Assembly: GCA_964016885.1 (NCBI GenBank)
Contig: OZ024744.1
Coordinates: 125,426,001-125,490,000, forward strand
Source: Eledone cirrhosa
Lineage: Eukaryota
Reading direction: 5' to 3'
DNA: 64,000 nucleotides
The translations under genes and the position numbers were made by a program. Each line of letters begins with the position of its first letter. Positions within the stretch are counted from its first letter, which is position 1. This document shows, in pieces, positions 1,081-64,000 of the stretch. Under the pieces are notes generated by a model that saw nothing but the letters and a program-made list of their open reading frames with translations, had not been told where the DNA came from and searched no databases.

Positions 1081-4000
1081 CATTCGCCGCCGGACTTCAG
1101 CTTCCTCATTTAGCATGGGCAGTTTTTCTTGAAAATCACACCACACACAGCAAATGTGTGTCCGCACATGTACCAGTAATTACAGATCGATTCCGGTGAA
1201 AATTCACTGAAAACGGGCCATCCGGCCCTGTGCGTCGATCGTGGGCCGGCCGGATGTTGACGGATCGATGTGTAATTAGAAGTACATGTGCGGACACTCA
1301 TTGGCTGTGCGTGGTATGCATTTCAGCAAGATATCTCCGTAACATCAAGAGTTATGGCTGTGGAGGCACACCTAGTCAAACGTAAACAAGGTCTGGAGCG
1401 TTTACGCTTCGCGATTTTGTTTACGTTTGACTAGGTGTGCCTCCACAGCCACAACTCTTGATGTTACGGAGATATCTTGCTGAAATGCATACCGCGCACA
1501 GCCAATGAGTGTCCGCACATGTACTTCTAATTACACATCGATCCGTCAACATCCGGCCGGCCCACGATCGACGCACAGGGCCGGATGGCCCGTTTTCAGT
1601 GAATTTTCACCGGAATCTATCTGTAATTACTGGTACATGTGCGGAGACACATTTGCTGTGTGTGGTGTGATTTTCAAGAAAAACTGCCCATGCTAAATGA
1701 GGAAGCTGAAGTCCGCCGGCGAATGGTGTGCTTCGAAGAAAACTAATTCGAAAATGACCGTTTGCAGGCGGAGTAACCTTTTCGATCGTGGGCCAGCCGC
1801 CCGTGGTGGGATCCATCTGTAATTACTGGTACATGTGCGGACATACATTTGCTGTGTGTGGTGTGATTTTCAAGAAGAACTGCCCATGCTAAATGAGGAA
1901 GCTGAAGTCCGCCGGCGAATGGTGTGCTTCGAAGAAAACTAATTCGAAAATGACCGTTTGCAGGCGGAGTAACCTTTTCGATCGTGGGCCAGCCGCCCGT
2001 GGTGGGATCCATCTGTAATTACTGGTACATGTGCGGACATACATTTGCTGTGTGTGGTGTGATTTTCAAGAAGAACTGCCCATGCTAAATGAGGAAGCTG
2101 AAGTCCGCCGGCGAATGGTGTGCTTCGAAGAAAACTAATTCGAAAATGACCGTTTGCAGGCGGGGTAACCTTTTCGATCGTGGGCCAGCCGCCCGTGGTG
2201 GGATCCATCTGTAATTACTGGTACATGTGCGGACACACATTTGCTGTGTGTGGTGTGATTTTCGAGAAAGACTGCCCATGCTAAATGAGGAAGCTGAAGT
2301 CCGCCGGCGAATGGTGTGCTTCGAAGAAAACTAATTCGAAAATGACTATTTGCCGGCGGAATCACCTTTTCGGTCCTGGTCCGGCCGGATCTTGCCGGAT
2401 CGATCGGAAATTTGTGGACCATGTTCGGAAGGCCATTGTGCATGTGTGGTGAAAAAAATTTGTGTCGAAATCTTCTCGGAAAATAACGGATCGCCGGCGG
2501 AGATTGCCATTTCGATCGTGGGCCGGCCGGATCTTGTCGGATCGATTCGGACATATGTGCATCGTGTTCGCAAGGCCCTTGTCTATGTGTGGTGTGATTT
2601 TCATAAAGAAATTCCGAAAAACCCAGTTTTAAATCTGATTTCGCCAAAGAATTTTGGGTATCAGATCGGGTTGAAAGGTATGGTTTCAGGTCGATCTGAA
2701 AGTCTAAAATGGAATTCACTCGGTTAGCTAACTTTTGATATATCGGAGATATCTTTCTGAAAATCACACCACACACTCCCAATGAGTGTCTGCACATGTA
2801 CCAGTAATTACAGATGGATCCCACCACGGGCGGCCGGCCCACGATCGAAAAGGTTACTCCGAAGCACACCATTCGCCGGCGGAATTCATTTAGCATGGGC
2901 AGTTTTTCTCGAAAATCACACCACACACAGCCAATGAGTGTCCGCACATGTACCAGTAATTACAGATGGATCCCACCACGGGCGGCTGGCCCACGATCGA
3001 AAAGGTTACTCCGCCTGCAAACGGTCATTTTCGAATTAGTTTTCTTCGAAGCACACCATTCGCCGGCGGACTTCAGCTTCCTCATTTAGCATGGGCAGTT
3101 TTTCTCGAAAATCACACCACACACAGCAAATGTGTGTCCGCACATGTACCAGTAATTACAGATCGATTCCGGTGAAAATTCACTGAAAACGGGCCATTCT
3201 GCCCTGTGCGTCGATCGTGGGCCGGCCGGATGTTGACGGATCGATGTGTAATTAGAAGTACATGTGCGGACACTCATTGGCTGTGCGTGGTATGCATTTC
3301 AGCAAGATATCTCCGTAACATCAAGAGTTATGGCTGTGGAGGCACACCTAGTCAAACGTAAACAAGCTCTGGAGCGTATACGCTTCGCGATTTTGTTTAC
3401 GTTTGACTAGGTGTGCCTCCACAGCCACAACTCTTGATGTTACGGAGATATCTTGCTGAAATGCATACCACGCACAGCCAATGAGTGTCCGCACATGTAC
3501 TTCTAATTACACATCGATCCGTCAACATCCGGCCGGCCCACGATCGACGCACAGGGCCGGATGGCCCGTTTTCAGTGAATTTTCACCGGAATCGATCTGT
3601 AATTACTGGTACATGTGCGGACACACATTTGCTGTGTGTGGTGTGATTTTCACGAAAAACTGCCCATGCTAAATGAGGAAGCTGAAGTCCGCCGGCGAAT
3701 GGTGTGCTTCGAAGAAAACTAATTCGAAAATGACCGTTTGCAGGCGGAGTAACCTTTTCGATCGTGGGCCAGCCGCCCGTGGTGGGATACATCTGTAATT
3801 ACTGGTACATGTGCGGACACACATTTGCTGTGTGTGGTGTGATTTTCGAGAAAGACTGCCCATGCTAAATGAGGAAGCTGAAGTCCGCCGGCGAATGGTG
3901 TGCTTCGAAGAAAACTAATTCGAAAATGACTATTTGCCGGCGGAATCACCTTTTCGGTCCTGGTCCGGCCGGATCTTGCCGGATCGATCGGAAATTTGTG

Positions 4001-5248
4001 GACCATGTTCGGAAGGCCATTGTGCATGTGTGGTGAAAAAAATTTGTGTCGAAATCTTCTCGGAAAATAACGGATCGCCGGCGGAGATTGCCATTTCGAT
4101 CGTGGGCCGGCCGGATCTTGTCGGATCGATTCGGACATATGTGCATCGTGTTCGCAAGGCCCTTGTCTATGTGTGGTGTGATTTTCATAAAGAAATTCCG
4201 AAAAACCCAGTTTTAAATCTGATTTCGCCAAAGAATTTTGGCTATCAGATCGGGTTGAAAGGTATGGTTTCAGGTCGATCTGAAAGTCTAAAATGGAATT
4301 CACTCGGTTAGCTAACTATTGATATATCGGAGATATCTTTCTGAAAATCACACCACACACTCCCAATGAGTGTCTGCACATGTACCAGTAATTACAGATG
4401 GATCCCACCACGGGCGGCCGGCCCACGATCGAAAAAGTTACTCCGAAGCACACCATTCGCCGGCGGAATTCATTTAGCATGGGCAGTTTTTCTCGAAAAT
4501 CACACCACACACAGCCAATGAGTGTCCGCACATGTACCAGTAATTACAGATGGATCCCACCACGGGCGGCTGGCCCACGATCGAAAAGGTTACTCCGCCT
4601 GCAAACGGTCATTTTCGAATTAGTTTTCTTCGAAGCACACCATTCGCCGGCGGACTTCAGCTTCCTCATTTAGCATGGGCAGTTTTTCTTGAAAATCACA
4701 CCACACACAGCAAATGTGTGTCCGCACATGTACCAGTAATTACAGATCGATTCCGGTGAAAATTCACTGAAAACGGGCCATTCGGCCCTGTGCGTCGATC
4801 GTGGGCCGGCCGGATGTTGACGGATCGATGTGTAATTAGAAGTACATGTGCGGACACTCATTGGCTGTGCGTGGTATGCATTTCACTAAGATATCTCCGT
4901 AACATCAAGAGTTATGGCTGTGGAGGCACACCTAGTCAAACGTAAACAAGGTCTGGAGCGTTTACGCTTCGCGATTTTGTTTACGTTTGACTAGGTGTGC
5001 CTCCACAGCGACAACTCTTGATGTTACGGAGATATCTTGCTGAAATTCATACCACGCACAGCCAATGAGTGTCCGCACATGTACCTGTAATTACACATCG
5101 ATCCGACGACGGACAGAGTATTCGGTTTATTTTCTTGACATATTTCTTTACATATTGTCCAGGCATGCACTTTTTCCATGATTAGTTCTGTTGACGGCCC
5201 GCTTTCCAAAATACCTTATCCTGTGCAACGCCGGGTACCACTGCTAGT
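1081..5248. repeat. Complex palindromic satellite: 196-bp monomers in both orientations with three hairpin centres (~1403, ~3379, ~4963), ending in a Helitron-like 3' terminus
   Basis: Mirror-image ORF pairs 1110-1301(-)/1505-1696(+) and 3086-3277(-)/3481-3672(+). 196-bp period in 1607-2330. Ends cctgtgcaacgccgggtaccactgCTAG|T. Confidence 0.85.
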
Positions 5249-12622: not shown

Positions 12623-15600
12623 AATAATAATAATAATAATGAAATGATTGTGTACAGTGCTCAGGTGCACTACAACTCATCAAAGGTGCATGTATAGTAC
12701 ATAGAATAATGTACAAATGTCAGGAAAATAAACAGTGTATGAGTCATGATATAATAACAATAACAATAATGAAATATTGTGCACTGTGCCCAGGTGCACC
12801 ACAACCCATCAAAAAAGTGCATGTACAGTACATAGGGCAATGCACAAACATCAGTAAAATGAACAGTGCACACATGTGTGCATGTGTATGGAAGGGGCAC
12901 ATCAGGTGTAGTTTTGGCGTATTTCGGGAAGCATGAGTGTCTTAAAGGATGCAGTGTCTCGGCAGCTAACAATTGACGCAGGCAGTTTGTTCCATGTTTC
13001 AGCAACTCTGAGCGTGAAAAAATGTCTGCGAAAGTCATGGGAGCTGTGCTGTTTTCTTATCTTGTAGGCATGTCCACGTGTGTTAGACACATGGAGATCA
13101 AAGAGGCGCTCAGGGTTGCAGTTGGCGAGATGGTTAAAAACTTTGTGGGTATTCACCAAGTCCACTGCCAGATGTCGGAGCTTCAATGAATCCATGCCCA
13201 GGGAAGCAAGGCGTTCAGAGTATGGTAGGTGTCTGATGGAGGGTATGCGCTTGGTTGCACGTCTCTGAACAGCTTCCAGGAGGTCAATGTTCCGAGCAAG
13301 ATAGGGGTTCCAGACTGATGATGCGAATTCCAAGTGTGGTCGCACCATAGCTGTATACAGTTTTAAATAGATGGCTAGAGAGCGGCTAACAAAGGTCTTG
13401 CTGAGTGATGCCAAGACACCCTCGGCCTTCTTGACAATCTTAGAGACATGCTTTGTCCAACGCAAATCGTTGCCGACAGTAATGCCCAGGTCACGTTCAC
13501 AAGAGGACTTTTTGATGTCAGTGTTGTGGAGGGAGTATGTGGACGCTGGATTTTTCCTTCCAAAATGCATGGTGGTACACTTGTCCACAGCCAGCTTCAG
13601 TTGCCAGTCTGTGATCCATTGCTGCATTGTGTCCAGGTCTGATTTTAGGAAAGAGTTGTAAATTTCAGGATCAGTCCTTTTGATTTCAAGGTACAGCTTG
13701 ATGTCATCTGCATATTTTAGTACCGTGGCATTCTGTAAGTTGGCATCTATGTCATTAATATATGCCACAAACAAAAGAGGACCAAGAACAGATCCCTGTG
13801 GTACACCAGATGACATCTCATATGGTGAAGAATGCTGTCCTAGAACCGTGACTACTTTCCTTCGGCTGAGAATGAAGGATTTCAGCCAGTCGAAAAGATC
13901 ATCCCTCACACCCATTGCAGAGAGTTTTGCCATAAGTCTTTTGTGTGGCACAGAATTAAAAGCCTTAGCAAAGTCAAGGTAAACAACATCCACCCATGAG
14001 CCGCTGTCAGTGATCCGGGTGATGTCCTCAAGGAACTCGATAAGCTGATCACAGCAGCTGGAGTTAGGGATAAATCCAAACTGTGAGGGCCGGATGAGGC
14101 TGTGAGAGCTCCAGAAGTTCCAAAGTGTTTCTCTGACACAGGATTCCATCAGTTTGGCCATACAGCTAGTAAGACTGACTGGACGATAGTTGACAGGTGA
14201 CATGCGGTTGCCCTTTTTGAACAGGGGAATGACACTGGCAGTTTTCCACTGCTCCGGAGTAGCACCATTGCTGAGACAGTATTGAAAGAAAAAAGAAAGC
14301 TGGCGCAAAAGGAAATCCCCGCCACGTTTGAGAAGCAGGTATGTCACACCATCAAGACCAGGGGAGGCATAGTTGCGCTTATTCTTAAGGTGACGTCGCA
14401 ACATTGCAGGTGTAAATTCCATAGTTGTTATGGAATTTGATGTTAGAGATGGTGGAGATGGTACATTCTGGTTTTCAACAGTAAAAATACTTGCATAGCA
14501 CTCAGCAATGAGTTCTGCGCATTCCTTGGGATCGTCAGTGATCTGGCTTGTGTGGGGATTGCGAAGAGGACCAACTGGAGAGTGAGGTCTCTGCTTTGAA
14601 TGAACATATTTCCAGAACACCTTACTGTCAGGATTGGTTGCGATGCACTGTTCAAATTCAAGCACTGCCTTCTTTGTCACTTGCTTGAGATGGTTAGAAG
14701 ATTTATTCCGCTTTTTTCTGTTGGCATCTGATCTATGCAGTTTATATTCCCGTTCAGCGTTCCGACGTTCTTTCCTGGCAAGTCGGACTGCTGAAGTTTC
14801 CCAGATTGCACTTTTGGGGTGGTTATTTTTCCGCTTCCGTGGCACTGATGCTGCACACGCTATCCATATTGAGTCCAGGATGCTCTGGAGTATAGAGTTC
14901 ACATCTCCAGAGTTATACATCTCATGCCAGTTTGGGCGCTGTAGCTCAGTGCAGTACAAGTTCCAATCCGCCCTCTTCCAATCAAAGCAAGCAGATTGGA
15001 GATGGCTCTGGTTTTTGTTGCTGCCCTCAAGTGCCAGATTGGCAATGATCATAGCATGATCAGAGTCGCCTAGAGGTTCCTCAGTAGTACAACTGATAAC
15101 CACTTCAGGAGTAGTGGTGAAGATCAGGTCCAAAGTGTTGTCACCTCTTGTTGGAGAGGTGACTACTTGTGACCAGTTTGAGTCCAGCACTAGTTCAAGG
15201 AAATCGTTTGCACCCTGTGGCCAACGAAAGGTTTCCCAATCGATCTCAGGATGATTGAAGTCACCTGCAATAAACACATAAGTGGCTGTTTTCTTGGCAG
15301 CAACTCTGAGGATATCGCAAAGCTGTGTGTCCTGATGGTAGTTTGGGGGGCGATAAACAACACCAAGCAGAAGTGTTGACATGGTCATACGTATGTCACA
15401 GAAAAAAACTTCTTCCTGTGATTCGTTCAAATCAACGCAAGGAATTACCGAAAAGTTTGAACGAACGTAGACCATCACACCACCACCACGGCGGTTAATG
15501 CGGTCCTTGCGGAAAAGGTTGTACCCAGTAATGGTGAAAACCCCATCACAGAGTAAGGAATGTGCCCATGTTTCCGTGACTGTGATGAAGTCAGGGTCGA

Positions 15601-15878
15601 TGCTTCTGACGTAGGATTCGAACAGATGTATCTTGTTGCATAAACTGCGAGCATTTAAGGACAACAATTTGTACCCTGCTCGCAGTCTATGATGGTGTGT
15701 AGAGGGTGGCAGGTTGTTCTGGTTTAGTTTCCCAGAGTTGTAGCAGTTTTTACATTGCCAGTTATTGTGGGTAGATCACACTCAGACCAGCTGGTATCTC
15801 TCTTCCACGTTTCACCCGCCTTGACAAACCTCCAGATCTGCCCATCATCACGCAGACTGAAACTTTCATCTTGTGCTG
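12620..15878 (-). mobile_element. 5'-truncated CR1/Jockey-group LINE with 3' UTR and (ATT)n tail, inserted in a microsatellite
   Basis: ORF2 at 12902-15667, ~260-bp 3' UTR, (TAA)n on + at 12622-12642, and the same microsatellite on both flanks. Confidence 0.9.
12902..15667 (-). CDS. LINE ORF2: APE-type endonuclease plus reverse transcriptase, 921 aa (CR1-like)
   Basis: EN motifs LNARSL, TETW, YRPP, GDFN, SDH. RT motifs NYRPVSL, QFGF, YLDFAKAF, GVPQGSVLGP, YADD. The called start is TTG, so the true start is uncertain. Confidence 0.93.
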   Translation of the reverse strand: MLSLNARSLCNKIHLFESYVRSIDPDFITVTETWAHSLLCDGVFTITGYNLFRKDRINRRGGGVMVYVRSNFSVIPCVDLNESQEEVFFCDIRMTMSTLLLGVVYRPPNYHQDTQLCDILRVAAKKTATYVFIAGDFNHPEIDWETFRWPQGANDFLELVLDSNWSQVVTSPTRGDNTLDLIFTTTPEVVISCTTEEPLGDSDHAMIIANLALEGSNKNQSHLQSACFDWKRADWNLYCTELQRPNWHEMYNSGDVNSILQSILDSIWIACAASVPRKRKNNHPKSAIWETSAVRLARKERRNAEREYKLHRSDANRKKRNKSSNHLKQVTKKAVLEFEQCIATNPDSKVFWKYVHSKQRPHSPVGPLRNPHTSQITDDPKECAELIAECYASIFTVENQNVPSPPSLTSNSITTMEFTPAMLRRHLKNKRNYASPGLDGVTYLLLKRGGDFLLRQLSFFFQYCLSNGATPEQWKTASVIPLFKKGNRMSPVNYRPVSLTSCMAKLMESCVRETLWNFWSSHSLIRPSQFGFIPNSSCCDQLIEFLEDITRITDSGSWVDVVYLDFAKAFNSVPHKRLMAKLSAMGVRDDLFDWLKSFILSRRKVVTVLGQHSSPYEMSSGVPQGSVLGPLLFVAYINDIDANLQNATVLKYADDIKLYLEIKRTDPEIYNSFLKSDLDTMQQWITDWQLKLAVDKCTTMHFGRKNPASTYSLHNTDIKKSSCERDLGITVGNDLRWTKHVSKIVKKAEGVLASLSKTFVSRSLAIYLKLYTAMVRPHLEFASSVWNPYLARNIDLLEAVQRRATKRIPSIRHLPYSERLASLGMDSLKLRHLAVDLVNTHKVFNHLANCNPERLFDLHVSNTRGHAYKIRKQHSSHDFRRHFFTLRVAETWNKLPASIVSCRDTASFKTLMLPEIRQNYT

Positions 15879-18640: not shown

Positions 18641-19235
18641 TATTATTTGTTTTATTATAATCAAAATATGCTGTTAGTTAGATCTGCATTGTGTACATTT
18701 TATATAATTTATGCCAGTTCCTTTTCTACATATCGAACATGGCCATTTCCCTGACGGAATAGAGTTTTGTCCTCTTTTCTACTCATCAACACTCATTCGT
18801 GACACAAAGTACAGCCAGCGGCATCATTGCGGACAGACTTAATCCTGATTTGCACTGACACACTGCCTCGCAATACGGAACACCGCACGTCTTTGATCTT
18901 CTTCCCGTCGATCAGCCTCCTTGCCATGCAAAGTACACCTGACGTCTAGCTTCTCTCTTAGCGGCGGCTGTATATTCTTCTCTACTCCCACTAATTTTCC
19001 AAGCATTCCATGCTAGTCTTTAGTCTCCAATGGCCCGATCTACAGTTTCTGTCTCAACTCGTCTATGCTTGGTCGTTCCTGCACATTGACATTGCACATC
19101 CAACGGAGCATGCTTGCTTCATTTCTCTCCAGCCGTCGCATGTCCTCTGCAGTTGCTGCCCGTGTCTCACTACCATGCAGCATCGCGCATCTAAACCTGG
19201 CCCTTACCCTAACCCCAACCTCTTTGGTTTTCGTT

Positions 19236-20062
19236 TTCTCGACGGCTAGCCGCATTTCGTGATCCGCCTTTCGATTGCGCTTCCGTCGCGGCAAAAGAAT
19301 TGCCTTTCCAGACCGGACCGGACCCATGATAGAAGACGTTCGTTACCGTTGGAGCAACGCAAATTACTCCTCGGTTGACGCCAAAAACGAACGCCTTCCC
19401 GCCTCGCGCCGCCTTCTCCTCGCCGACCCTCGGCCTCGACGATTAGCCACTTTCCGTCACAGCAGTAGATACGCGTCCGTCGTAATAGCCGTCATTTTAA
19501 CGCAGGAGAAACGCCTAATTGCCCTGCACCGCGTTTGACGGCGATCTACGACGGCGACGATGCGCGCACTCTTCCTTGCTGCGACGAAGGTTTCGGCTTT
19601 TCGTCGTGGACCCGGTCAGGTCATGCCGCTGACCTCGCGTTACGGCGACGCGAGAAGACGTTCGTTACCGCTGGAGCAACGCAAATTACTCCTCGGTTGA
19701 CGCCAAAAACGAACGCCTCGCGCCGCCGCTTCCTCCTCGGCCTCGACGATTAGCCGCTTTCCGTCACAGCAGTAGATACGCGTCCATCGTAATAGCCGTC
19801 ATTTTAACGCAGGAGAAACGCCTTGACGACGATATACGACGGGTCGACGACGCGCGCACTCTTTCTGCTGCGACGAAGGTTTTGGCTTTTCGTTGTGGAC
19901 CCGGTCGGGTCATGCCTCTGACCTCGCGTTGCGTCGCCACCGCCGCGGCGGGCTTGGGTTTAGCCGTAGCTACCCTCGTTTTGCCAACGGCGACGCGAGA
20001 AGACGTTCGTTACCGCTGGAGCAACGCAAATTACTCCTCGGATGAGGCCAAAAACGAACGCT
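19236..20062 (+). repeat. Diverged upstream duplicate of the 172-bp repeat and ETS-like leader (also ~51248-52083)
   Basis: Three copies of the core agaagacgttcgttaccgctggagcaacgcaaattactcctcgg plus two copies of sequence matching 27180-27365. Confidence 0.85.
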
Positions 20063-26077: not shown

Positions 26078-26170
26078 ACCCTAACCCTAAACCTAACCCC
26101 AACTCCAACTCTGACCCTAAACCTAACCCCAACCCCAACCCCAACCCTAACCCTAACCCTAACCCTAACC
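26078..26170. repeat. Interstitial telomere-type (CCCTAA)n tract abutting the 172-bp array (shorter in copy 2, 58144-58205)
   Basis: Direct reading. Confidence 0.9.
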
Positions 26171-27101
26171 CACGATAGAAGACGTTCGTTACCGCTGGAG
26201 CAACGCAAATTACTCCTCGGTTGACGCCAAAAACGAACGCCTTCTCGACGGCTAGCCGCATTTCGTGATCCGCCTTTCGATTGCGCTTCCGTCGCGGAAA
26301 AAGAATTGCCTTTATAGGCCGCCGCCGCCGCCCGACCGGACCCACGATAGAAGACGTTCGTTACCGCTGGAGCAACGCAAATTACTCCTCGGTTGACGCC
26401 AAAAACGAACGCCTTCTCGACGGCTAGCCGCATTTCGTGATCCGCCTTTCGATTGCGCTTCCGTCGCGGAAAAAGAATTGCCTTTATAGGCCGCCGCCGC
26501 CGCCCGACCGGACCCACGATAGAAGACGTTCGTTACCGCTGGAGCAACGCAAATTACTCCTCGGTTGACGCCAAAAACGAACGCCTTCTCGACGGCTAGC
26601 CGCATTTCGTGATCCGCCTTTCGATTGCGCTTCCGTCGCGGAAAAAGAATTGCCTTTATAGGCCGCCGCCGCCGCCCGACCGGACCCACGATAGAAGACG
26701 TTCGTTACCGCTGGAGCAACGCAAATTACTCCTCGGTTGACGCCAAAAACGAACGCCTTCTCGACGGCTAGCCGCATTTCGTGATCCGCCTTTCGATTGC
26801 GCTTCCGTCGCGGAAAAAGAATTGCCTTTATAGGCCGCCGCCGCCGCCCGACCGGACCCACGATAGAAGACGTTCGTTACCGCTGGAGCAACGCAAATTA
26901 CTCCTCGGTTGACGCCAAAAACGAACGCCTTCTCGACGGCTAGCCGCATTTCGTGATCCGCCTTTCGATTGCGCTTCCGTCGCGGAAAAAGAATTGCCTT
27001 TATAGGCCGCCGCCGCCGCCCGACCGGACCCACGATAGAAGACGTTCGTTACCGCTGGAGCAACGCAAATTACTCCTCGGTTGACGCCAAAAACGAACGC
27101 C
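26169..27101 (+). promoter_or_regulatory. 172-bp GC-rich tandem repeats (5 full plus 1 partial); putative Pol I spacer-promoter/enhancer array
   Basis: Exact 172-bp period directly upstream of the 18S start. TATAGG occurs at 26313, 26485, 26657, 26829 and 27001. The repeat is certain; the promoter role is inferred. Confidence 0.55.
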
Positions 27102-27461
27102 TTCCGGTTCGGGCGACGTAAAAGTCTGTAGCCTTTTCGCCGATCCTCGACGATTATCCGCCTTCCGAACAACCGCCTTTCCGCCGTCACAGCAGTAGGT
27201 ACTCGTCCGTCGTAATAGCCGTCATTTTAATGCAGGAGAAACGCCTAAATGCACTGCGATTGACGACGATCTACGACGCGCTTACTCTTCCTTGCTGCGA
27301 CGAAGGTTTCGTTCGGCTTTTCGTCGTGGACCCGGTCAGGTCATGCCGCTGATCTCGCGTTGCGTCGTTACCGCTGGAGCAACGCAAATTACTCCTCGTT
27401 TAACGCCAACATCGAACGCGCTTCGGTTCTCGGTCGTCGTTGTTTTGTTTCGTGCGGAAGA
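27102..27461 (+). other. Putative 5' external transcribed spacer (also 59125-59484)
   Basis: CpG-rich segment between the repeats and the 18S 5' end; positional inference. Confidence 0.55.
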
Positions 27462-27646
27462 TACCTGGGTGATCCTGCCAGTAGTCATATGCTTGTCTCA
27501 AAGCTTAAGCCATGCAAGTGGAAGTTCATGCCGTAAACGAAAATGGTGAAACCGCGAATGGCTCAGGAACCGGATCTAATCCTCGGGACCGTATTCCTCA
27601 CCGCGAGGAGAGGATAACTGTGGCAATTCTAGAGCTAATACATGCA
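27462..27646 (+). rRNA. 18S rRNA 5' end only (~185 nt; truncated, diverged)
   Basis: TACCTGGgTGATCCTGCCAGTAGTCATATGCTTGTCTCAAAG..TAAGCCATGCA, GGTGAAACCGCGAATGGCTCA and GGATAACTGTGGCAATTCTAGAGCTAATACATGC occur in canonical order and spacing. Confidence 0.93.
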
Positions 27647-27650
27647 ATTG

Positions 27651-30600
27651 AGATCGGAGAGGGAGCGATCCGTCTGCTTGATTCCGATAACGAACGAGAC
27701 ATTCGTATCCGAAAGAACGTTTGTCTGGAAACTGGTGCAGTCAGTGAGTCGAAAAAAAAATATCTCGGTGGTAGTAGCAAATATTCGAACGAGACATTCG
27801 TATGCGAAAGAACGTTTGTCGGTGGTAGTAGCAAATATTCGAACGAGACATTCGTATGCGAAAGAACGTTTGTCTGGAAGTGGCGATCCATGCCCGGTGG
27901 ATAGTTGGTTCCGGGTTTTACTATGATTGTTGCAAAACAGAAACTTAAAGGGATTGACAGAATTTGCGATTCCGGAGAGAGGGCGATCCGTCTGCTTGAT
28001 TCCGATAACGAACGAGACATTCGTATCCGAAAGAACGTTTGTCTGGAAACTGGTGAGTCAGTGAGTCGAAAAAAAAATATCTCGGTGGTAGTAGCAAATA
28101 TTCGAACGAGACATTCGTAGGCGAAAGAAAAATATCTCGGTGGTAGTAGCAAATATTCGAACGAGACATTCGTATGCGAAAGAACGTTTGTCGGTGGTAG
28201 TAGCAAATATTCGAACGAGACATTCGTATGCGAAAGAACGTTTGTCGGTGGTAGTAGCAAATATTCGAACGAGACATTCGTATGCGAAAGAACGTTTGTC
28301 TGGAAGTGGCGATCCATGCCCGGTGGATAGTTGGTTCCGGGTTTTACTATGATTGTTGCAAAACAAAAACTTAAAGGGATTGACAGAATTTGCGATTCCG
28401 GAGAGAGGGCGATCCGTCTGCTTGATTCCGATAACGAACGAGACATTCGTATCCGAAAGAACGTTTGTCTGGAAACTGGTGAGTCAGTGAGTCGAAAAAA
28501 AAATATCTCGGTGGTAGTAGCAAATATTCGAACGAGACATTCGTATGCGAAAGAACGTTTGTCGGTGGTAGTAGCAAATATTCGAACGAGACATTCGTAT
28601 GCGAAAGAACGTTTGTCTGGAAGTGGCGATCCATGCCCGGTGGATAGTTGGTTCCGGGTTTTACTATGATTGTTGCAAAACAGAAACTTAAAGGGATTGA
28701 CAGAATTTGCGATTACGGAGAGGGGGCGATCCGTCTGCTTGATTCCGATAACGAACGAGACATTCGTATCCGAAAGAACGTTTGTCTGGAAACTGGTGAG
28801 TCAGTGAGTCGAAAAAAAAATATCTCGGTGGTAGTGGCAAATATTCGAACGAGACATTCGTATGCGAAAGAACGTTTGTCGGTGGTAGTAGCAAATATTC
28901 GAACGAGACATTCGTATGCGAAAGAACGTTTGTCTGGAAGTGGCGATCCATGCCCGGTGGATAGTTGGTTCCGGGTTTTACTATGATTGTTGCAAAACAG
29001 AAACTTAAAGGGATTGACAGAATTTGCGATTACGGAGAGGGGGCGATCCGTCTGCTTGATTCCGATAACGAACGAGACATTCGTATCCGAAAGAACGTTT
29101 GTCTGGAAACTGGTGAGTCAGTGAGTCGAAAAAAAAATATCTCGGTGGTAGTGGCAAATATTCGAACGAGACATTCGTATGCGAAAGAACGTTTGTCGGT
29201 GGTAGTAGCAAATATTCGAACGAGACATTCGTATGCGAAAGAACGTTTGTCTGGAAGTGGCGATCCATGCCCGGTGGATAGTTGGTTCCGGGTTTTACTA
29301 TGATTGTTGCAAAACAGAAACTTAAAGGGATTGACAGAATTTGCGATTACGGAGAGGGGGCGATCCGTCTGCTTGATTCCGATAACGAACGAGACATTCG
29401 TATCCGAAAGAACGTTTGTCTGGAAACTGGTGAGTCAGTGAGTCGAAAAAAAAATATCTCGGTGGTAGTAGCAAATATTCGAACGAGACATTCGTATGCG
29501 AAAGAACGTTTGTCGGTGGTAGTAGCAAATATTCGAACGAGACATTCGTATGCGAAAGAACGTTTGTCTGGAAGTGGCGATCCATGCCCGGTGGATAGTT
29601 GGTTCCGGGTTTTACTATGATTGTTGCAAAACAGAAACTTAAAGGGATTGACAGAATTTGCGATTACGGAGAGGGGGCGATCCGTCTGCTTGATTCCGAT
29701 AACGAACGAGACATTCGTATCCGAAAGAACGTTTGTCTGGAAACTGGTGAGTCAGTGAGTCGAAAAAAAAATATCTCGGTGGTAGTAGCAAATATTCGAA
29801 CGAGACATTCGTATGCGAAAGAACGTTTGTCGGTGGTAGTAGCAAATATTCGAACGAGACATTCGTATGCGAAAGAACGTTTGTCTGGAAGTGGCGATCC
29901 ATGCCCGGTGGATAGTTGGTTCCGGGTTTTACTATGATTGTTGCAAAACAGAAACTTAAAGGGATTGACAGAATTTGCGATTCCGGAGAGGGGGCGATCC
30001 GTCTGCTTGATTCCGATAACGAACGAGACATTCGTATCCGAAAGAACGTTTGTCTGGAAACTGGTGAGTCGAAAAAAAAATATCTCGGTGGTAGTAGCAA
30101 ATATTCGTATGCGAAAGAAAAGATCTCGGTGGTAGTAGCAAATATTCGAACGAGACATTCGTAGGCGAAAGAAAAATATCTCGGTGGTAGTAGCAAATAT
30201 TCGAACGAGACATTCGTATGCGAAAGAACGTTTGTCGGTGGTAGTAGCAAATATTCGAACGAGACATTCGTATGCGAAAGAACGTTTGTCTGGAAGTGGC
30301 GATCCATGCCCGGTGGATAGTTGGTTCCGGGTTTTACTATGATTGTTGCAAAACAGAAACTTAAAGGGATTGACAGAATTTGCGATTCCGGAGAAGGGGC
30401 GATCCGTCTGCTTGATTCCGATAACGAACGAGACATTCGTATCCGAAAGAACGTTTGTCTGGAAACTGGTGAGTCAGTGAGTCGAAAAAAAAATATCTCG
30501 GTGGTAGTAGCAAATATTCGAACGAGACATTCGTATGCGAAAGAAAAATATCTCGGTGGTAGTAGCAAATATTCGAACGAGACATTCGTATGCGAAAGAA

Positions 30601-31058
30601 CGTTTGTCTGGAAGTGGCGATCCATGCTCGGTGGATAGTTGGTTCCGGGTTTTACTATGATTGTTGCAAAACAGAAACTTAAAGGGATTGACAGAATTTG
30701 CGATTCCGGAGAGGGGGCGATCCGTCTGCTTGATTCCGATAACGAACGAGACATTCGTATCCGAAAGAACGTTTGTCTGGAAACTGGTGAGTCAGTGAGT
30801 CGAAAAAAAAATATCTCGGTGGTAGTAGCAAATATTCGTATGCGAAAGAAAAGATCTCGGTGGTAGTAGCAAATATTCGAACGAGACATTCGTATGCGAA
30901 AGAAAAATATCTCGGTGGTAGTAGCAAATATTCGAACGAGACATTCGTATTCGAAAGAACGTTTGTCTGGAAGTTGCGATCCATGCCCGGTGGATAGTTG
31001 GTTCCGGGCTTTACTATGATTGTTGCAAAACAGAAACTTAAAGGAATTGACAGAATTT
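27651..31058 (+). repeat. rRNA-mosaic tandem array: 10 monomers (mostly 317 bp; others 318-426 bp) built from 18S and 28S motifs
   Basis: Each monomer has 18S-like GATTCCGGAGAGGG, GATTCCGATAACGAACGAGAC, CATTCGTAT, GCGAAAG and GGTTCCGGG..GTTGCAAA..GAAACTTAAAGG.ATTGAC, plus 28S-like ATCTcGGTGGTAGTAGCAAATATTCgAACGAGA. Confidence 0.93.
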
Positions 31059-31084
31059 TCGAATCGACATCAACTCGGCTACGG

Positions 31085-31440
31085 CTATCCCGTCGAGTAC
31101 GAGAGTATCGCGGGATCAGAGCAACGGTTTGCTAGGCTGCCTCTGAGCGATAACGGCTGAACGCCTCCTCTAAGCCGGAACCCTAGCCGGACCCGAGTTG
31201 TTTTTCGACAAGCGTCTCGACCTTCTTAAGGCCCATGCCTTAGTTTGGCGATTGCCGTCCGTTCGCCGACGGCGGCAGCGTCAGCGGAAATGCCATTCTG
31301 TGACGACTACGACGATTCGTCGTCGTCGTCGTCCATTCGATTTCCTGAAAGAGATAGAGACTAAAGTGATCAAATTGTTCGGAGTTACGTGCTTAGTAGA
31401 GCAGCTACCACACTGCAATCTATTGAGAGTTTTCTGACGA
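31085..31440 (+). rRNA. 28S rRNA 3'-terminal remnant (domain VI: sarcin-ricin helix to 3' end), diverged
   Basis: AGTACGAGAG (31096), GATAACGGCTGAACGCCTC..TAAG (31149), CCATTCTGTGACGAC (31293) and GTAGAGCAGCT...CTGCAATCTATTGA (31397) occur in canonical order. Confidence 0.85.
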
Positions 31441-33081
31441 ACGATACAATCCGCCCACGTGGCGCCAGAAAGGGAGAAGAAAAGAAAAGTTAGACGCCGC
31501 CGATCGATCGGTTCGTTGTTTTACGTGTACACAGCTTGTGTGTGTGTCTGTATGTGATACAAGCCGCCTATCCGTCTTCCAAGTAAGTTTTGTGTGTAGA
31601 CTGCGGAAAGAAATCCAATCCGCCGTCTAGGCGGTTCTGCCGCCGACCCATACTTTTGCGAGTCGCTCCCGGGAAAGACAGGCGGCAAGACGGCGTGTAT
31701 ACACGACGCCTTCCGTCTTCCGCCTCGAACCCGGCAAACGTTCCTTTATTCGTCCACGCCTTCCCGCTTCGATCGCGAGAAAGTAATCAATCTGTTTTGT
31801 GTGTGATACAAATTTGTTTTCTTAATTTGATAACCATGAATTGTTTCAACACCGGCCCTTTTAAGGGCCACTTATATTTTCAATAATCAGTTTAAATGGG
31901 TTGCACCGTAGCCACTTGGTAATACACTGCAAATCTCCCGTCAATCTATGAAGGTTTTGTAGTAGATTAGATCAAAACACAATCAGCAAGACAGTAATGG
32001 AATGAATAATATAAACATTTGTTTATAATTAAAGCCTTAAGATGTCCCTCCCTCCCTCCCTTCCTCCCTTCCTTCCTTCCTTCCTTCCTTCCTTACGATA
32101 TACACTTTAATAACATTGAAACTTATTTAATAAGTTTAAATTTTAAACACTTTTTATTCAGACGTACCGCGATAAGTAACTAGATATGTTCTAACGAATA
32201 ATCCGCGATGTGGCGAGGATTACCGCGATAGGAAATTAGATACGTTCCAAAGAAATATCCGCGAAAAGTGAACCGCGATATAGCGGGTTCACCAGCCAGT
32301 GTATTACTGGTACTTTATTTTATCGACCCCCATAAGGATGAAAGGCAAAGTTAACTGTGCAATAACAAAGGGAGATAACCTCGTCTTTTTTTTTTTACGG
32401 AGTTATTTCCCTTTAAATTTTATCTATTACTTATGATGATACAATTTAATCAGTTCTTAGCTGTCGAGACACTGCATCCTTTAAAACCTCCATGGAACAA
32501 GCTACCTGCAACAGTTGTTAGCTGTCGAGACACTGCATCTTTTAAAACCTCCATGGAACAAACTACCTGCATCAGTTGTTAGGGTCTGAGTTCAAATCAC
32601 GCCGAGGAGGTTAACTTTGCCTTTCATCCTTACGGGGTCGGTCGGAAAACGAACCATTCCCGGTTCGCTTTCGAAGCGGGTTTCCGAAAACAGCGCTTCT
32701 CTCGACCGGGCCCGTCGTCCGCTCGGCGGTGGTTTTCATCGTCCCAGGCACGGCTAACAGGCGGAGACGGGACAAACGCGCGTGTTCCTTTTTTTATCAG
32801 CCGCAGCGCCGTTCGTATATATGCTTAGGTTGTTTTTTTTTTAAATATCCTAAGTTAAGTTGGGGCTAAGTTAAGTTGGGGCTAAGTTAAGTTGAGGTTA
32901 AGTTGAGTTGGGGTTAAGTTAAGTGGGGGTTAAGTTAAGCTGGGGTTAAGTTAAGTTGAGGTTAAGTTAAGTTGGGGTTAAGTCAAGTTGGGGTTAAGTT
33001 AAGTTGGGGTTAAGTTAGGTTGGGGTTAAGTTAGGTTGGGGTTAAGTTAAGTTGGGGTTAAGTTAGGTTGCGGTTAAGTTA

Positions 33082-57580: not shown

Positions 57581-58203
57581 GCTTCTTTAGAACACATCTG
57601 CTGTATTCAGACCTGGAGCGGAGATGGGCTCCACCAAGTTTTAAAAATTGCCCTTTAAGCGCTGTATGTCAATATGGTGCCCCTATGATTCCCTCCCTCA
57701 GGAGTTATGGGACCATAGATACTGTCAATTGTAAAGAATAACAGAGATATTCAGTGCTAGTGTGGTGTTCTGTCAGTTGTGGAGATTGATGAATCTAAAC
57801 AGAAATATCAACAGCACTTTTCATTTCTGAGTAACACATTTGTTACCAAGTGCTGCATGGCTGGAATGAAAATCAGTGCTGTGAAAACCAAGACATTCAT
57901 CCTCTCAAGGAAGCTTGTGCAGTGCACTCTACATGTAAATGGAGTCCCACTGAAGCAGGTAGAAAAGTTCATGTATCTCGAAGCTGTGTTCACGAGTGAT
58001 GACAGAGACGGCAAAGGCACAACACACAACAGAAGAAAAGAACAATGACAATTATTATTATTATTATTATTATTATTATTTGTTTTATTAGTTTTATTAT
58101 AATAAAAATTGTGCTGTTAGTTTGCTTGCTATACCATCATGTACCCTAACCCTAAACCTAACCCCAACTCCAACTCTGACCCTAACCCTAACCCTAACCC
58201 TAA

Positions 58204-59124
58204 CCCACGATAGAAGACGTTCGTTACCGCTGGAGCAACGCAAATTACTCCTCGGTTGACGCCAAAAACGAACGCCTTCTCGACGGCTAGCCGCATTTCG
58301 TGATCCGCCTTTCGATTGCGCTTCCGTCGCGGAAAAAGAATTGCCTTTATAGGCCGCCGCCGCCCGACCGGACCCACGATAGAAGACGTTCGTTACCGCT
58401 GGAGCAACGCAAATTACTCCTCGGTTGACGCCAAAAACGAACGCCTTCTCGACGGCTAGCCGCATTTCGTGATCCGCCTTTCGATTGCGCTTCCGTCGCG
58501 GAAAAAGAATTGCCTTTATAGGCCGCCGCCGCCCGACCGGACCCACGATAGAAGACGTTCGTTACCGCTGGAGCAACGCAAATTACTCCTCGGTTGACGC
58601 CAAAAACGAACGCCTTCTCGACGGCTAGCCGCATTTCGTGATCCGCCTTTCGATTGCGCTTCCGTCGCGGAAAAAGAATTGCCTTTATAGGCCGCCGCCG
58701 CCGCCCGACCGGACCCACGATAGAAGACGTTCGTTACCGCTGGAGCAACGCAAATTACTCCTCGGTTGACGCCAAAAACGAACGCCTTCTCGACGGCTAG
58801 CCGCATTTCGTGATCCGCCTTTCGATTGCGCTTCCGTCGCGGAAAAAGAATTGCCTTTATAGGCCGCCTCCGCCCGACCGGACCCACGATAGAAGACGTT
58901 CGTTACCGCTGGAGCAACGCAAATTACTCCTCGGTTGACGCCAAAAACGAACGCCTTCTCGACGGCTAGCCGCATTTCGTGATCCGCCTTTCGATTGCGC
59001 TTCCGTCGCGGAAAAAGAATTGCCTTTATAGGCCGCCGCCGCCCGACCGGACCCACGATAGAAGACGTTCGTTACCGCTGGAGCAACGCAAATTACTCCT
59101 CGGTTGACGCCAAAAACGAACGCC
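58204..59124 (+). promoter_or_regulatory. 169/172-bp tandem repeats, copy 2 (putative Pol I promoter/enhancer array)
   Basis: As in copy 1; most units have one fewer GCC. Confidence 0.55.
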
Positions 59125-59484
59125 TTCCGGTTCGGGCGACGTAAAAGTCTGTAGCCTTTTCGCCGATCCTCGACGATTATCCGCCTTCCGAACAACCGCC
59201 TTTCCGCCGTCACAGCAGTAGGTACTCGTCCGTCGTAATAGCCGTCATTTTAATGCAGGAGAAACGCCTAAATGCACTGCGATTGACGACGATCTACGAC
59301 GCGCTTACTCTTCCTTGCTGCGACGAAGGTTTCGTTCGGCTTTTCGTCGTGGACCCGGTCAGGTCATGCCGCTGATCTCGCGTTGCGTCGTTACCGCTGG
59401 AGCAACGCAAATTACTCCTCGTTTAACGCCAACATCGAACGCGCTTCGGTTCTCGGTCGTCGTTGTTTTGTTTCGTGCGGAAGA

Positions 59485-59669
59485 TACCTGGGTGATCCTG
59501 CCAGTAGTCATATGCTTGTCTCAAAGCTTAAGCCATGCAAGTGGAAGTTCATGCCGTAAACGAAAATGGTGAAACCGCGAATGGCTCAGGAACCGGATCT
59601 AATCCTCGGGACCGTATTCCTCACCGCGAGGAGAGGATAACTGTGGCAATTCTAGAGCTAATACATGCA
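59485..59669 (+). rRNA. 18S rRNA 5' end only, copy 2
   Basis: Same as 27462-27646. Confidence 0.93.
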
Positions 59670-59673
59670 ATTG

Positions 59674-62600
59674 AGATCGGAGAGGGAGCGATCCGTCTGC
59701 TTGATTCCGATAACGAACGAGACATTCGTATCCGAAAGAACGTTTGTCTGGAAACTGGTGCAGTCAGTGAGTCGAAAAAAAAATATCTCGGTGGTAGTAG
59801 CAAATATTCGAACGAGACATTCGTATGCGAAAGAACGTTTGTCGGTGGTAGTAGCAAATATTCGAACGAGACATTCGTATGCGAAAGAACGTTTGTCTGG
59901 AAGTGGCGATCCATGCCCGGTGGATAGTTGGTTCCGGGTTTTACTATGATTGTTGCAAAACAGAAACTTAAAGGGATTGACAGAATTTGCGATTCCGGAG
60001 AGAGGGCGATCCGTCTGCTTGATTCCGATAACGAACGAGACATTCGTATCCGAAAGAACGTTTGTCTGGAAACTGGTGAGTCAGTGAGTCGAAAAAAAAA
60101 TATCTCGGTGGTAGTAGCAAATATTCGTATGCGAAAGAAAAGATCTCGGTGGTAGTAGCAAATATTCGAACGAGACATTCGTAGGCGAAAGAAAAATATC
60201 TCGGTGGTAGTAGCAAATATTCGAACGAGACATTCGTATGCGAAAGAACGTTTGTCGGTGGTAGTAGCAAATATTCGAACGAGACATTCGTATGCGAAAG
60301 AACGTTTGTCGGTGGTAGTAGCAAATATTCGAACGAGACATTCGTATGCGAAAGAACGTTTGTCTGGAAGTGGCGATCCATGCCCGGTGGATAGTTGGTT
60401 CCGGGTTTTACTATGATTGTTGCAAAACAAAAACTTAAAGGGATTGACAGAATTTGCGATTCCGGAGAGAGGGCGATCCGTCTGCTTGATTCCGATAACG
60501 AACGAGACATTCGTATCCGAAAGAACGTTTGTCTGGAAACTGGTGAGTCAGTGAGTCGAAAAAAAAATATCTCGGTGGTAGTAGCAAATATTCGAACGAG
60601 ACATTCGTATGCGAAAGAACGTTTGTCGGTGGTAGTAGCAAATATTCGAACGAGACATTCGTATGCGAAAGAACGTTTGTCGGTGGTAGTAGCAAATATT
60701 CGAACGAGACATTCGTATGCGAAAGAACGTTTGTCTGGAAGTGGCGATCCATGCCCGGTGGATAGTTGGTTCCGGGTTTTACTATGATTGTTGCAAAACA
60801 AAAACTTAAAGGGATTGACAGAATTTGCGATTCCGGAGAGAGGGCGATCCGTCTGCTTGATTCCGATAACGAACGAGACATTCGTATCCGAAAGAACGTT
60901 TGTCTGGAAACTGGTGAGTCAGTGAGTCGAAAAAAAAATATCTCGGTGGTAGTAGCAAATATTCGAACGAGACATTCGTATGCGAAAGAACGTTTGTCGG
61001 TGGTAGTAGCAAATATTCGAACGAGACATTCGTATGCGAAAGAACGTTTGTCTGGAAGTGGCGATCCATGCCCGGTGGATAGTTGGTTCCGGGTTTTACT
61101 ATGATTGTTGCAAAACAGAAACTTAAAGGGATTGACAGAATTTGCGATTACGGAGAGGGGGCGATCCGTCTGCTTGATTCCGATAACGAACGAGACATTC
61201 GTATCCGAAAGAACGTTTGTCTGGAAACTGGTGAGTCAGTGAGTCGAAAAAAAAATATCTCGGTGGTAGTGGCAAATATTCGAACGAGACATTCGTATGC
61301 GAAAGAACGTTTGTCGGTGGTAGTAGCAAATATTCGAACGAGACATTCGTATGCGAAAGAACGTTTGTCTGGAAGTGGCGATCCATGCCCGGTGGATAGT
61401 TGGTTCCGGGTTTTACTATGATTGTTGCAAAACAGAAACTTAAAGGGATTGACAGAATTTGCGATTACGGAGAGGGGGCGATCCGTCTGCTTGATTCCGA
61501 TAACGAACGAGACATTCGTATCCGAAAGAACGTTTGTCTGGAAACTGGTGAGTCAGTGAGTCGAAAAAAAAATATCTCGGTGGTAGTAGCAAATATTCGA
61601 ACGAGACATTCGTATGCGAAAGAACGTTTGTCGGTGGTAGTAGCAAATATTCGAACGAGACATTCGTATGCGAAAGAACGTTTGTCTGGAAGTGGCGATC
61701 CATGCCCGGTGGATAGTTGGTTCCGGGTTTTACTATGATTGTTGCAAAACAGAAACTTAAAGGGATTGACAGAATTTGCGATTCCGGAGAGGGGGCGATC
61801 CGTCTGCTTGATTCCGATAACGAACGAGACATTCGTATCCGAAAGAACGTTTGTCTGGAAACTGGTGAGTCAGTGAGTCGAAAAAAAAAATATCTCGGTG
61901 GTAGTAGCAAATATTCGAACGAGACATTCGTATGCGAAAGAACGTTTGTCGGTGGTAGTAGCAAATATTCGAACGAGACATTCGTATGCGAAAGAACGTT
62001 TGTCTGGAAGTGGCGATCCATGCTCGGTGGATAGTTGGTTCCGGGTTTTACTATGATTGTTGCAAAACAGAAACTTAAAGGGATTGACAGAATTTGCGAT
62101 TCCGGAGAGGGGGCGATCCGTCTGCTTGATTCCGATAACGAACGAGACATTCGTATCCGAAAGAACGTTTGTCTGGAAACTGGTGAGTCAGTGAGTCGAA
62201 AAAAAAATATCTCGGTGGTAGTAGCAAATATTCGAACGAGACATTCGTATGCGAAAGAACGTTTGTCTGGAAGTGGCGATCCATGCCCGGTGGATAGTTG
62301 GTTCCGGGTTTTACTATGATTGTTGCAAAACAGAAACTTAAAGGGATTGACAGAATTTGCGATTCCGGAGAGGGGGCGATCCGTCTGCTTGATTCCGATA
62401 ACGAACGAGACATTCGTATCCGAAAGAACGTTTGTCTGGAAACTGGTGAGTCGAAAAAAAAATATCTCGGTGGTAGTAGCAAATATTCGTATGCGAAAGA
62501 AAAGATCTCGGTGGTAGTAGCAAATATTCGAACGAGACATTCGTAGGCGAAAGAAAAATATCTCGGTGGTAGTAGCAAATATTCGAACGAGACATTCGTA

Positions 62601-64000
62601 TGCGAAAGAACGTTTGTCGGTGGTAGTAGCAAATATTCGAACGAGACATTCGTATGCGAAAGAACGTTTGTCTGGAAGTGGCGATCCATGCCCGGTGGAT
62701 AGTTGGTTCCGGGTTTTACTATGATTGTTGCAAAACAGAAACTTAAAGGGATTGACAGAATTTGCGATTCCGGAGAGAGGGCGATCCGTCTGCTTGATTC
62801 CGATAACGAACGAGACATTCGTATCCGAAAGAACGTTTGTCTGGAAACTGGTGAGTCAGTGAGTCGAAAAAAAAATATCTCGGTGGTAGTAGCAAATATT
62901 CGAACGAGACATTCGTATGCGAAAGAACGTTTGTCGGTGGTAGTAGCAAATATTCGAACGAGACATTCGTATGCGAAAGAACGTTTGTCTGGAAGTGGCG
63001 ATCCATGCTCGGTGGATAGTTGGTTCCGGGTTTTACTATGATTGTTGCAAAACAGAAACTTAAAGGGATTGACAGAATTTGCGATTCCGGAGAGGGGGCG
63101 ATCCGTCTGCTTGATTCCGATAACGAACGAGACATTCGTATCCGAAAGAACGTTTGTCTGGAAACTGGTGAGTCAGTGAGTCGAAAAAAAAATATCTCGG
63201 TGGTAGTAGCAAATATTCGAACGAGACATTCGTATGCGAAAGAACGTTTGTCTGGAAGTGGCGATCCATGCCCGGTGGATAGTTGGTTCCGGGTTTTACT
63301 ATGATTGTTGCAAAACAGAAACTTAAAGGGATTGACAGAATTTGCGATTCCGGAGAGGGGGCGATCCGTCTGCTTGATTCCGATAACGAACGAGACATTC
63401 GTATCCGAAAGAACGTTTGTCTGGAAACTGGTGAGTCGAAAAAAAAATATCTCGGTGGTAGTAGCAAATATTCGTATGCGAAAGAAAAGATCTCGGTGGT
63501 AGTAGCAAATATTCGAACGAGACATTCGTAGGCGAAAGAAAAATATCTCGGTGGTAGTAGCAAATATTCGAACGAGACATTCGTATGCGAAAGAACGTTT
63601 GTCGGTGGTAGTAGCAAATATTCGAACGAGACATTCGTATGCGAAAGAACGTTTGTCTGGAAGTGGCGATCCATGCCCGGTGGATAGTTGGTTCCGGGTT
63701 TTACTATGATTGTTGCAAAACAGAAACTTAAAGGGATTGACAGAATTTGCGATTCCGGAGAGAGGGCGATCCGTCTGCTTGATTCCGATAACGAACGAGA
63801 CATTCGTATCCGAAAGAACGTTTGTCTGGAAACTGGTGAGTCAGTGAGTCGAAAAAAAAATATCTCGGTGGTAGTAGCAAATATTCGAACGAGACATTCG
63901 TATGCGAAAGAACGTTTGTCGGTGGTAGTAGCAAATATTCGAACGAGACATTCGTATGCGAAAGAACGTTTGTCTGGAAGTGGCGATCCATGCTCGGTGG
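59674..64000 (+). repeat. rRNA-mosaic tandem array, copy 2: at least 13 monomers (263-467 bp), truncated by the window end
   Basis: Same monomer with a different copy number and sub-repeat composition. Confidence 0.93.

Follow-up and report, generated by a model that had tools for sequence, protein, structure and literature searches.

Anatomy of a gutted rDNA unit

The window, by which is meant the whole 64-kb stretch of DNA that was analysed, consists of two copies of a 32-kb unit that are 99.7% identical, each carrying an element derived from ribosomal DNA (rDNA). A 5.8S search located intact rDNA in the same genome, with 29 of the 40 scored candidates matching, and intact units with an 18S of ~2,870 nt and a 28S of 6,200-6,350 nt were confirmed on contigs C25, C12 and C4. 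The element runs in the order of telomere-type hexamers, 5.4 copies of block A, block B, a partial block A, the last 44 nt before the 18S, 18S 1-191, a monomer array, the 28S 3' end and downstream spacer remnants. The monomers are composed of tiles of the genome's own rDNA, which are set in scrambled order and match the intact rDNA at 94-100%. The features are as follows.

26078..26171, + strand: degenerate telomere-type hexamer repeat, abutting the rDNA-derived part
26168..27104, + strand: block A, a 172-bp repeat in 5.4 copies, derived from the spacer of intact rDNA
27145..27367, + strand: block B, the intact upstream region from -1119 to -881 relative to the 18S start, with 9 substitutions
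27365..27424, + strand: partial block A, joined to position -44
27418..27652, + strand: last 44 nt before the 18S plus 18S 1-191, with 4 substitutions in the 18S part
27655..31069, + strand: array of 10 mosaic monomers of 317-426 bp, with tiles T1-T6 and a possible T7
27762..27800, + strand: T4, own 28S 2091-2129, 38 of 39 bases identical
27765..27872, + strand: two copies of the 54-bp sub-repeat, matching 28S and ITS1
28463..28505, + strand: linker (example from the third monomer), probably a deleted inverted copy of ITS1 304-379
31070..31487, + strand: 28S 3' end, from own 28S 5889 to its end (3005-3399 of the Rfam model), internally deleted and carrying 30 substitutions
31517..31792, + strand: remnant of the downstream spacer repeats of intact rDNA
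31810..31882, + strand: histone-H4-type 3' stem-loop, an orphan with no histone ORF upstream, belonging to a dispersed repeat
58203..64000, + strand: second element copy, in the next 32-kb unit, with 13 monomers and incomplete at the window end
Monomer tile T1, + strand: 18S 575-592
Monomer tile T2, + strand: 18S 2026-2064
Monomer tile T3, + strand: ITS1 288-306
Monomer tile T5, + strand: 28S 1404-1421
Monomer tile T6, + strand: 18S 1827-1884, middle remodelled
Possible monomer tile T7: 18S 1960-1970, 11 nt, not significant alone

A functional rRNA is impossible, as the element is without 5.8S and is collinear with only 191 nt of the 18S and ~390 nt of the 28S. The 836 bases that precede the 18S in intact rDNA at -880 to -45 are absent. 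What is left of the upstream region is blocks A and B, both of them repeated in the intact spacer, with block A present in 4-7 copies per unit. Spacer repeats can be promoter duplications, as described for Drosophila (PMC1215480), and by analogy the repeats retained here could be of this kind. A second, more diverged A/B set, together with 62 of the 65 bases that follow B in intact units, is found at 19228-20061, 7.4 kb upstream in the same unit.

The mature-rRNA tiles (five or six) all stem from the conserved core and are all in sense orientation; expansion segments make up a large part of the 2.9-kb 18S and the 6.3-kb 28S of this genome. The monomer is weakly structured, its predicted folding being no better than that of shuffled sequences (z -0.24), and a coding role was rejected, since the open reading frames across the array are repeat read-throughs. 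The middle of T6 (27901-27928) differs from intact 18S 1827-1850 far more than does the rest of the tile, and its changed bases are complementary to the tile start (ATAGT/ACTAT), which may reflect a short fold-back copy.

Several features accompany the element. Each unit includes a LINE-type open frame of 957 codons with endonuclease and reverse transcriptase domains (12902-15775, - strand), and the 196-bp and 1,584-bp filler repeats of the window (1081-5105) also flank the element copy on contig C18. The repeat with the H4-type stem-loop occurs at C18 4.9-12.7 Mb and C28 126.58-126.91 Mb, in many cases in inverted pairs that lie back to back at a distance of 90 bp; of eight stem-loop loci examined, three are real H3/H4 gene pairs, and the other five have no histone ORF among their longest frames. 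One stem-loop copy caps the element on C28, and the C18 element copy ends before the stem-loop. Histone-type 3' processing was ruled out, as the stem-loop of the orphan repeat is without the downstream word common to the three real H4 genes. Elsewhere in the genome, a locus on C6 has two hammerhead HH9 matches (locus positions 1424-1494 and 1739-1814, - strand) that are weak, scoring 21.7 and 24.6 bits and thereby falling below the cut-off; they sit in a 317-bp tandem and inverted repeat.

The 54-bp sub-repeat and the homogeneity of the array

The 20-mer GGTGGTAGTAGCAAATATTC occurs in the 64-kb window in 54 exact copies (57 with at most two mismatches), all on the + strand, and is present 1-5 times in each of the 23 monomers, among which sizes of 263, 317 and 371 bp are all found. 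These counts bear out the first-pass annotation, which had described a 54-bp sub-repeat present one to five times per monomer and monomers of these three sizes. Its 54-bp step stands in so far as Tandem Repeats Finder reports a perfect 54-bp period at 27765-27874, but sub-repeats of 55 and 41 bp also exist. Exact matches to own 28S 2094-2124 account for 31 of the 54 bases, and the remainder is largely ITS1: the 28S part is joined via a TTCG overlap to the 19 nt of ITS1 288-306 (one change), and the few linker bases at the end are the start of the probable inverted ITS1 piece. Across nine array copies (two from the window and seven from elsewhere in the genome, two of the nine being incomplete at the sequence end), the motif reaches up to 7 copies per anchor-to-anchor interval. 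It had been regarded as the most amplified module, which does not hold, as the neighbouring 28S-tail/ITS1 piece is commoner (530 copies vs 411 of the T4 core in the nine arrays).

DNA searches returned 99 and 110 candidate units, and the best 40 scored of each were all 100% identical. About 100 units are assembled, on C28 (124.7-126.5 Mb), C18 and C178, most of them on one chromosome-scale contig; complete units contain 8-39 monomers, and a junction 30-mer has 2,755 copies. Read depth in three DNA runs of one sample was 3,600-4,200 on element-only contigs vs 3,000-4,500 on intact-type contigs, so that element and intact rDNA stand at roughly one to one, although depth is no copy number. For an inert element, a depth so close to that of intact rDNA is high. 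An assembly artefact was ruled out, as short-read contigs bridge the junctions exactly; the three deep runs represent one sample, which may be the source of the assembly. The monomer was also detected in three further runs at low depth and with 0-1 differences, and may stem there either from trace DNA of this species or from a relative. At 136 Mb, C28 breaks the size order by coming after C18 (44 Mb) and C25 (29 Mb), which is common for sex chromosomes in assemblies, and C28 may be such a case. The intact 28S of C25 is 94.4% identical to that of C4 (115 substitutions) and 99.0% identical to that of C12, possibly reflecting two rDNA classes.

The near-invariance of the motif reported by the first-pass annotation was confirmed as such (396 of 411 copies are exact in the nine arrays), but it is a property common to much of the unit, linkers included. 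Over 25.5 kb of non-rDNA filler, 9 substitutions separate neighbouring units, and 7-8 of 8 other copies carry the same upstream blocks and 18S end without any change. Per-site diversity among the copies is 0 in the 3' half of T2, 0.005-0.007 in T6 and 0.033 in T5; the guide targets are not better preserved within this genome than the linkers, with 0.0031 in the T4 core and 0.060 in T1 vs 0-0.0017. T1, the most variable and least protected tile, carries two human methylation equivalents; the measure is one within a genome, and selection between species is outside its reach. As linkers, upstream blocks and filler are also near-uniform, the invariance is attributed to recent homogenisation. Compared with intact rDNA, every part of the element, the spacer among them, carries about 2-8% substitutions, and the tiles are therefore not unusually conserved. 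An origin from the genome's own 45S, a head-to-tail, high-copy and homogenised array and a variable sub-repeat number together characterize the element as an rDNA-derived satellite.

Methylation-site content and guide searches

In yeast, U24 guides methylation at Cm1437, Am1449 and Gm1450 (PMC5699541 Table 1). The assignment of the T4 segment to U24 is thus correct for yeast, and the C..A,G spacing fits own 28S 2093/2105/2106. Yeast sites from that table and human sites from PMC6182160 Table 1 served as stand-ins for the species' own sites. With regard to reference rRNA for a conservation-matched control, a metagenome scan yielded 2 loci, neither with the 18S or the T4 region, and viral-contig scans yielded 3 short LSU fragments and then 0 and 0 matches. 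Because no reference sequence was found, sites were placed by spacing and base identity, with 9 of 9 matches for T1 (at offset 151), 7 of 7 for T2, 6 of 6 for T6 (at the same offset as T2, tied with one other) and 7 of 8 for T4 (tied with three others, the Rfam model position helping to fix it). The T4 offset so chosen is taken by us to be the right one; the T5 placement is likewise presumed to be correct, with 4 of 5 nearby yeast sites matching. The global 28S map is partly unreliable and was left out of the P values, and T3, which is ITS1 and contains no known site, was left out of the enrichment test.

The human equivalents number four in T4 (Cm2338/Am2350/Gm2351/Cm2352, with Cm1437/Am1449/Gm1450 in yeast), two in T1 (Um428/Gm436), one in T2 (Am1383), one in T5, at which the base differs here, and none in T6, while the possible T7 would add Um1288; both T5 and T6 are without the modified base in this species. 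Three 18S tiles had been said to overlap methylation-guide targets, which is the case for the two at Um428/Gm436 and Am1383 but not for GTTGCAAA, where there is no human 2'-O-methyl site and the position of yeast Gm1126 is an A in the own 18S. Within T4 itself, the C1437-equivalent base is replaced in the 54-bp type (156 of 411 T4 copies), is retained with a mismatch three bases upstream in 216 and lies in a full site in 39, and the T4 core is retained in all three sub-repeat types.

Over the five tiles, 8 human-equivalent Nm sites were counted vs 3.4 expected on whole molecules (P 0.046), or vs 4.0 when large expansion segments were masked at approximate limits (P 0.082), and four of the five tiles have such a site (P 0.05 and 0.12). 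The yeast sites number 5 vs 1.8 expected (P 0.056), two of the five having another base here. Adding T7 post hoc gives P 0.014-0.054, dropping T4 gives P 0.35-0.40, and a random 39-mer of human 28S holds at least 4 Nm in 3-5% of placements. The proposed enrichment over comparable rRNA therefore survives as an about twofold lean of borderline significance (P 0.046-0.12) that is gone without T4; the Nm content is a borderline lean rather than a clear enrichment, and it rests on the tile singled out by the first-pass annotation.

No convincing U24-like guide was found by an Rfam model or by four sequence patterns, these searches being without a positive control. Rfam RF00069 (SNORD24) gave no match in this genome nor in control genomes, and two patterns gave 0 matches in the genome. 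The third gave 2 matches, both in a dispersed repeat without a C box, and the fourth gave 26 (the reversed control gave 7), of which not one combines a second antisense element with a fitting box D; the matches to both patterns were rejected. At the RNA level, the RNA runs listed in the read search contain 7-8% of the query words, which is about what intact 18S shares with the query, and two runs of other species (one RNA, one guessed to be RNA) cover only pieces shared with intact rRNA and continue into intact 28S.

Origin of the mosaic and alternative readings

Ten junction rows were measured, two of which are versions of one junction, leaving 9 distinct junctions with overlaps of 10, 5, 4, 3, 3, 2 and 1 nt (or none, in the last copy) and none at two. 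Overlaps of at least 4 nt occur at 3 of the 9 vs 2.1% of random pairs, and overlaps of at most 2 nt at 4 of the 9; the 10-nt overlap joins 18S and 28S tiles, and one 3-nt overlap presupposes a tile of 7 nt that was assumed. The linker after T3 was compared with 11,924 windows from both strands, and it aligns best to antisense ITS1 304-379, which immediately adjoins the stretch that gave rise to T3. The score margin is small (32.5 vs 30.5 for the next locus), and the window and gap costs were set post hoc; the linker is a probable inverted ITS1 piece. Template-switch rearrangement models include FoSTeS and MMBIR. Rearrangements of this kind are also described in the ODIRA account (PMC10766183). 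From the junction microhomologies together with the probable inverted ITS1 piece, we infer that DNA template switching took place.

The 54-bp unit is thus likely to be the variable sub-repeat of an rDNA-derived mosaic satellite that arose by template switching and unequal exchange, and probably not a selected snoRNP decoy. In the proposed course of events, a repair or replication event in the rDNA would have jumped between short shared words (10, 5 and 4 nt), with one jump to the opposite strand in ITS1, and the 28S-tail/ITS1 module would have been duplicated inside the monomer. Short overlaps may then have seeded the 54- and 55-bp duplications and a 13-bp deletion (the 41-bp type), after which the monomers and subsequently the whole 32-45 kb unit would have been amplified and homogenised recently, the sub-repeat number likely changing by slippage and unequal exchange. 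Methylation sites would have been carried along as passengers, because the conserved rRNA core is rich in them. Counting against this reading are the borderline Nm lean, the restriction of the mature-rRNA tiles to the core, the presence of the T4 core in all sub-repeat types, the 39 T4 copies with a full site, the high depth, the four junctions with at most 2 nt of overlap and the spacer repeats, which could be promoter duplications.

On the other hand, the array could be transcribed and its repeated tiles could bind box C/D snoRNPs multivalently, as a decoy or a nucleolar landing array. T4 is the densest small Nm cluster, T1, T2 and possibly T7 lie on human Um428/Gm436, Am1383 and Um1288, the sense tiles, at 11-39 nt, offer sufficient length for guides of 10-21 nt (PMC5699541), the monomer has little structure and the copy number is high. 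Nevertheless, such binding appears very improbable from the sequence, as the enrichment is borderline and driven by one tile, T5 and T6 are without a modified base here, ITS1 lies within the most amplified module, the C1437-equivalent site is cut in the 54-bp type, T1 is the most variable tile, the 836 upstream bases are deleted and the guide searches, which lacked a positive control, were empty. We likewise hold it to be very improbable that the gutted unit would act as a pre-rRNA mimic, giving a kilobase-scale guide-target RNA that titrates box C/D snoRNPs or nucleates nucleolar material. It is unlikely that the array acts as DNA, with a mosaic that is filler and with spacer repeats that bind Pol I factors (as a pseudo-NOR or enhancer sink) or help chromosomes to pair. 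Such a role would be in keeping with the 4-7 copies of block A per unit, the two further A/B copies at 19.2-20.1 kb, a depth about equal to that of intact rDNA and the location of most assembled units on one chromosome-scale contig, but amplification of spacer repeats is also typical of neutral rDNA-derived satellites (PMC2679016).

Another source for the tiles would be (pre-)rRNA itself, copied by a reverse transcriptase or in RNA-templated repair that stalled and jumped near modified bases, which would yield the lean towards the core without selection. The unit carries a LINE-type endonuclease/reverse transcriptase frame, the mature-rRNA tiles are all sense and the 54-bp type starts one base 3' of the C1437 equivalent; however, the 5' ends of the other tiles do not adjoin Nm equivalents, and DNA templates are indicated both by the probable antisense ITS1 piece and by the spacer repeats kept upstream and downstream. 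An RNA source is distinctly unlikely. If the element is inert, it shows that rDNA can shatter into tiles of tens of bases and re-amplify to about the copy number of the real genes; rDNA copy numbers estimated for this species would then come out too high, and 18S/28S probes and primers would be confused by the element. Were the element instead transcribed and bound, it would represent a natural substrate-mimic sponge for snoRNPs.

In the literature searched, which covered few subscription papers, no cephalopod mosaic of this kind was found described, nor any natural snoRNA-substrate sponge, and an octopus ribosome preprint (PMC13321053) mentions rDNA once in its accessible text, for a contiguous locus. 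The nucleolar lncRNA LoNA, described in PMC5928123 as lowering fibrillarin activity on rRNA, would be a functional analogue if the snoRNP-binding model were true; LoNA mimics the snoRNA side, whereas the element would mimic the substrate side. Like the element, lamprey Germ1 is a highly amplified repeat with truncated rDNA; in the portion of PMC9734144 devoted to it, however, Germ1 comprises an R2-derived region and one truncated 28S piece and is germline-restricted, and that portion describes no scrambled micro-tiles. Template-switch rearrangements such as ODIRA (PMC10766183) resemble the element in the short homologies at their junctions and in the change of strand, but they give kb-scale duplications or inverted triplications, whereas here pieces of tens of bases were later amplified thousands of times. 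The rDNA satellite of tomato, on the part of PMC2679016 that describes it, is likewise 45S-derived and amplified by recombination, with spacer sub-repeats expanded and coding parts lost; there, the amplified unit is spacer and the coding sequence was eliminated, whereas the monomer here is put together from pieces of 18S, ITS1 and 28S that are 11-58 nt long, with the two rRNA ends on either side as a frame. What is odd about the element is its micro-tiling and its abundance.
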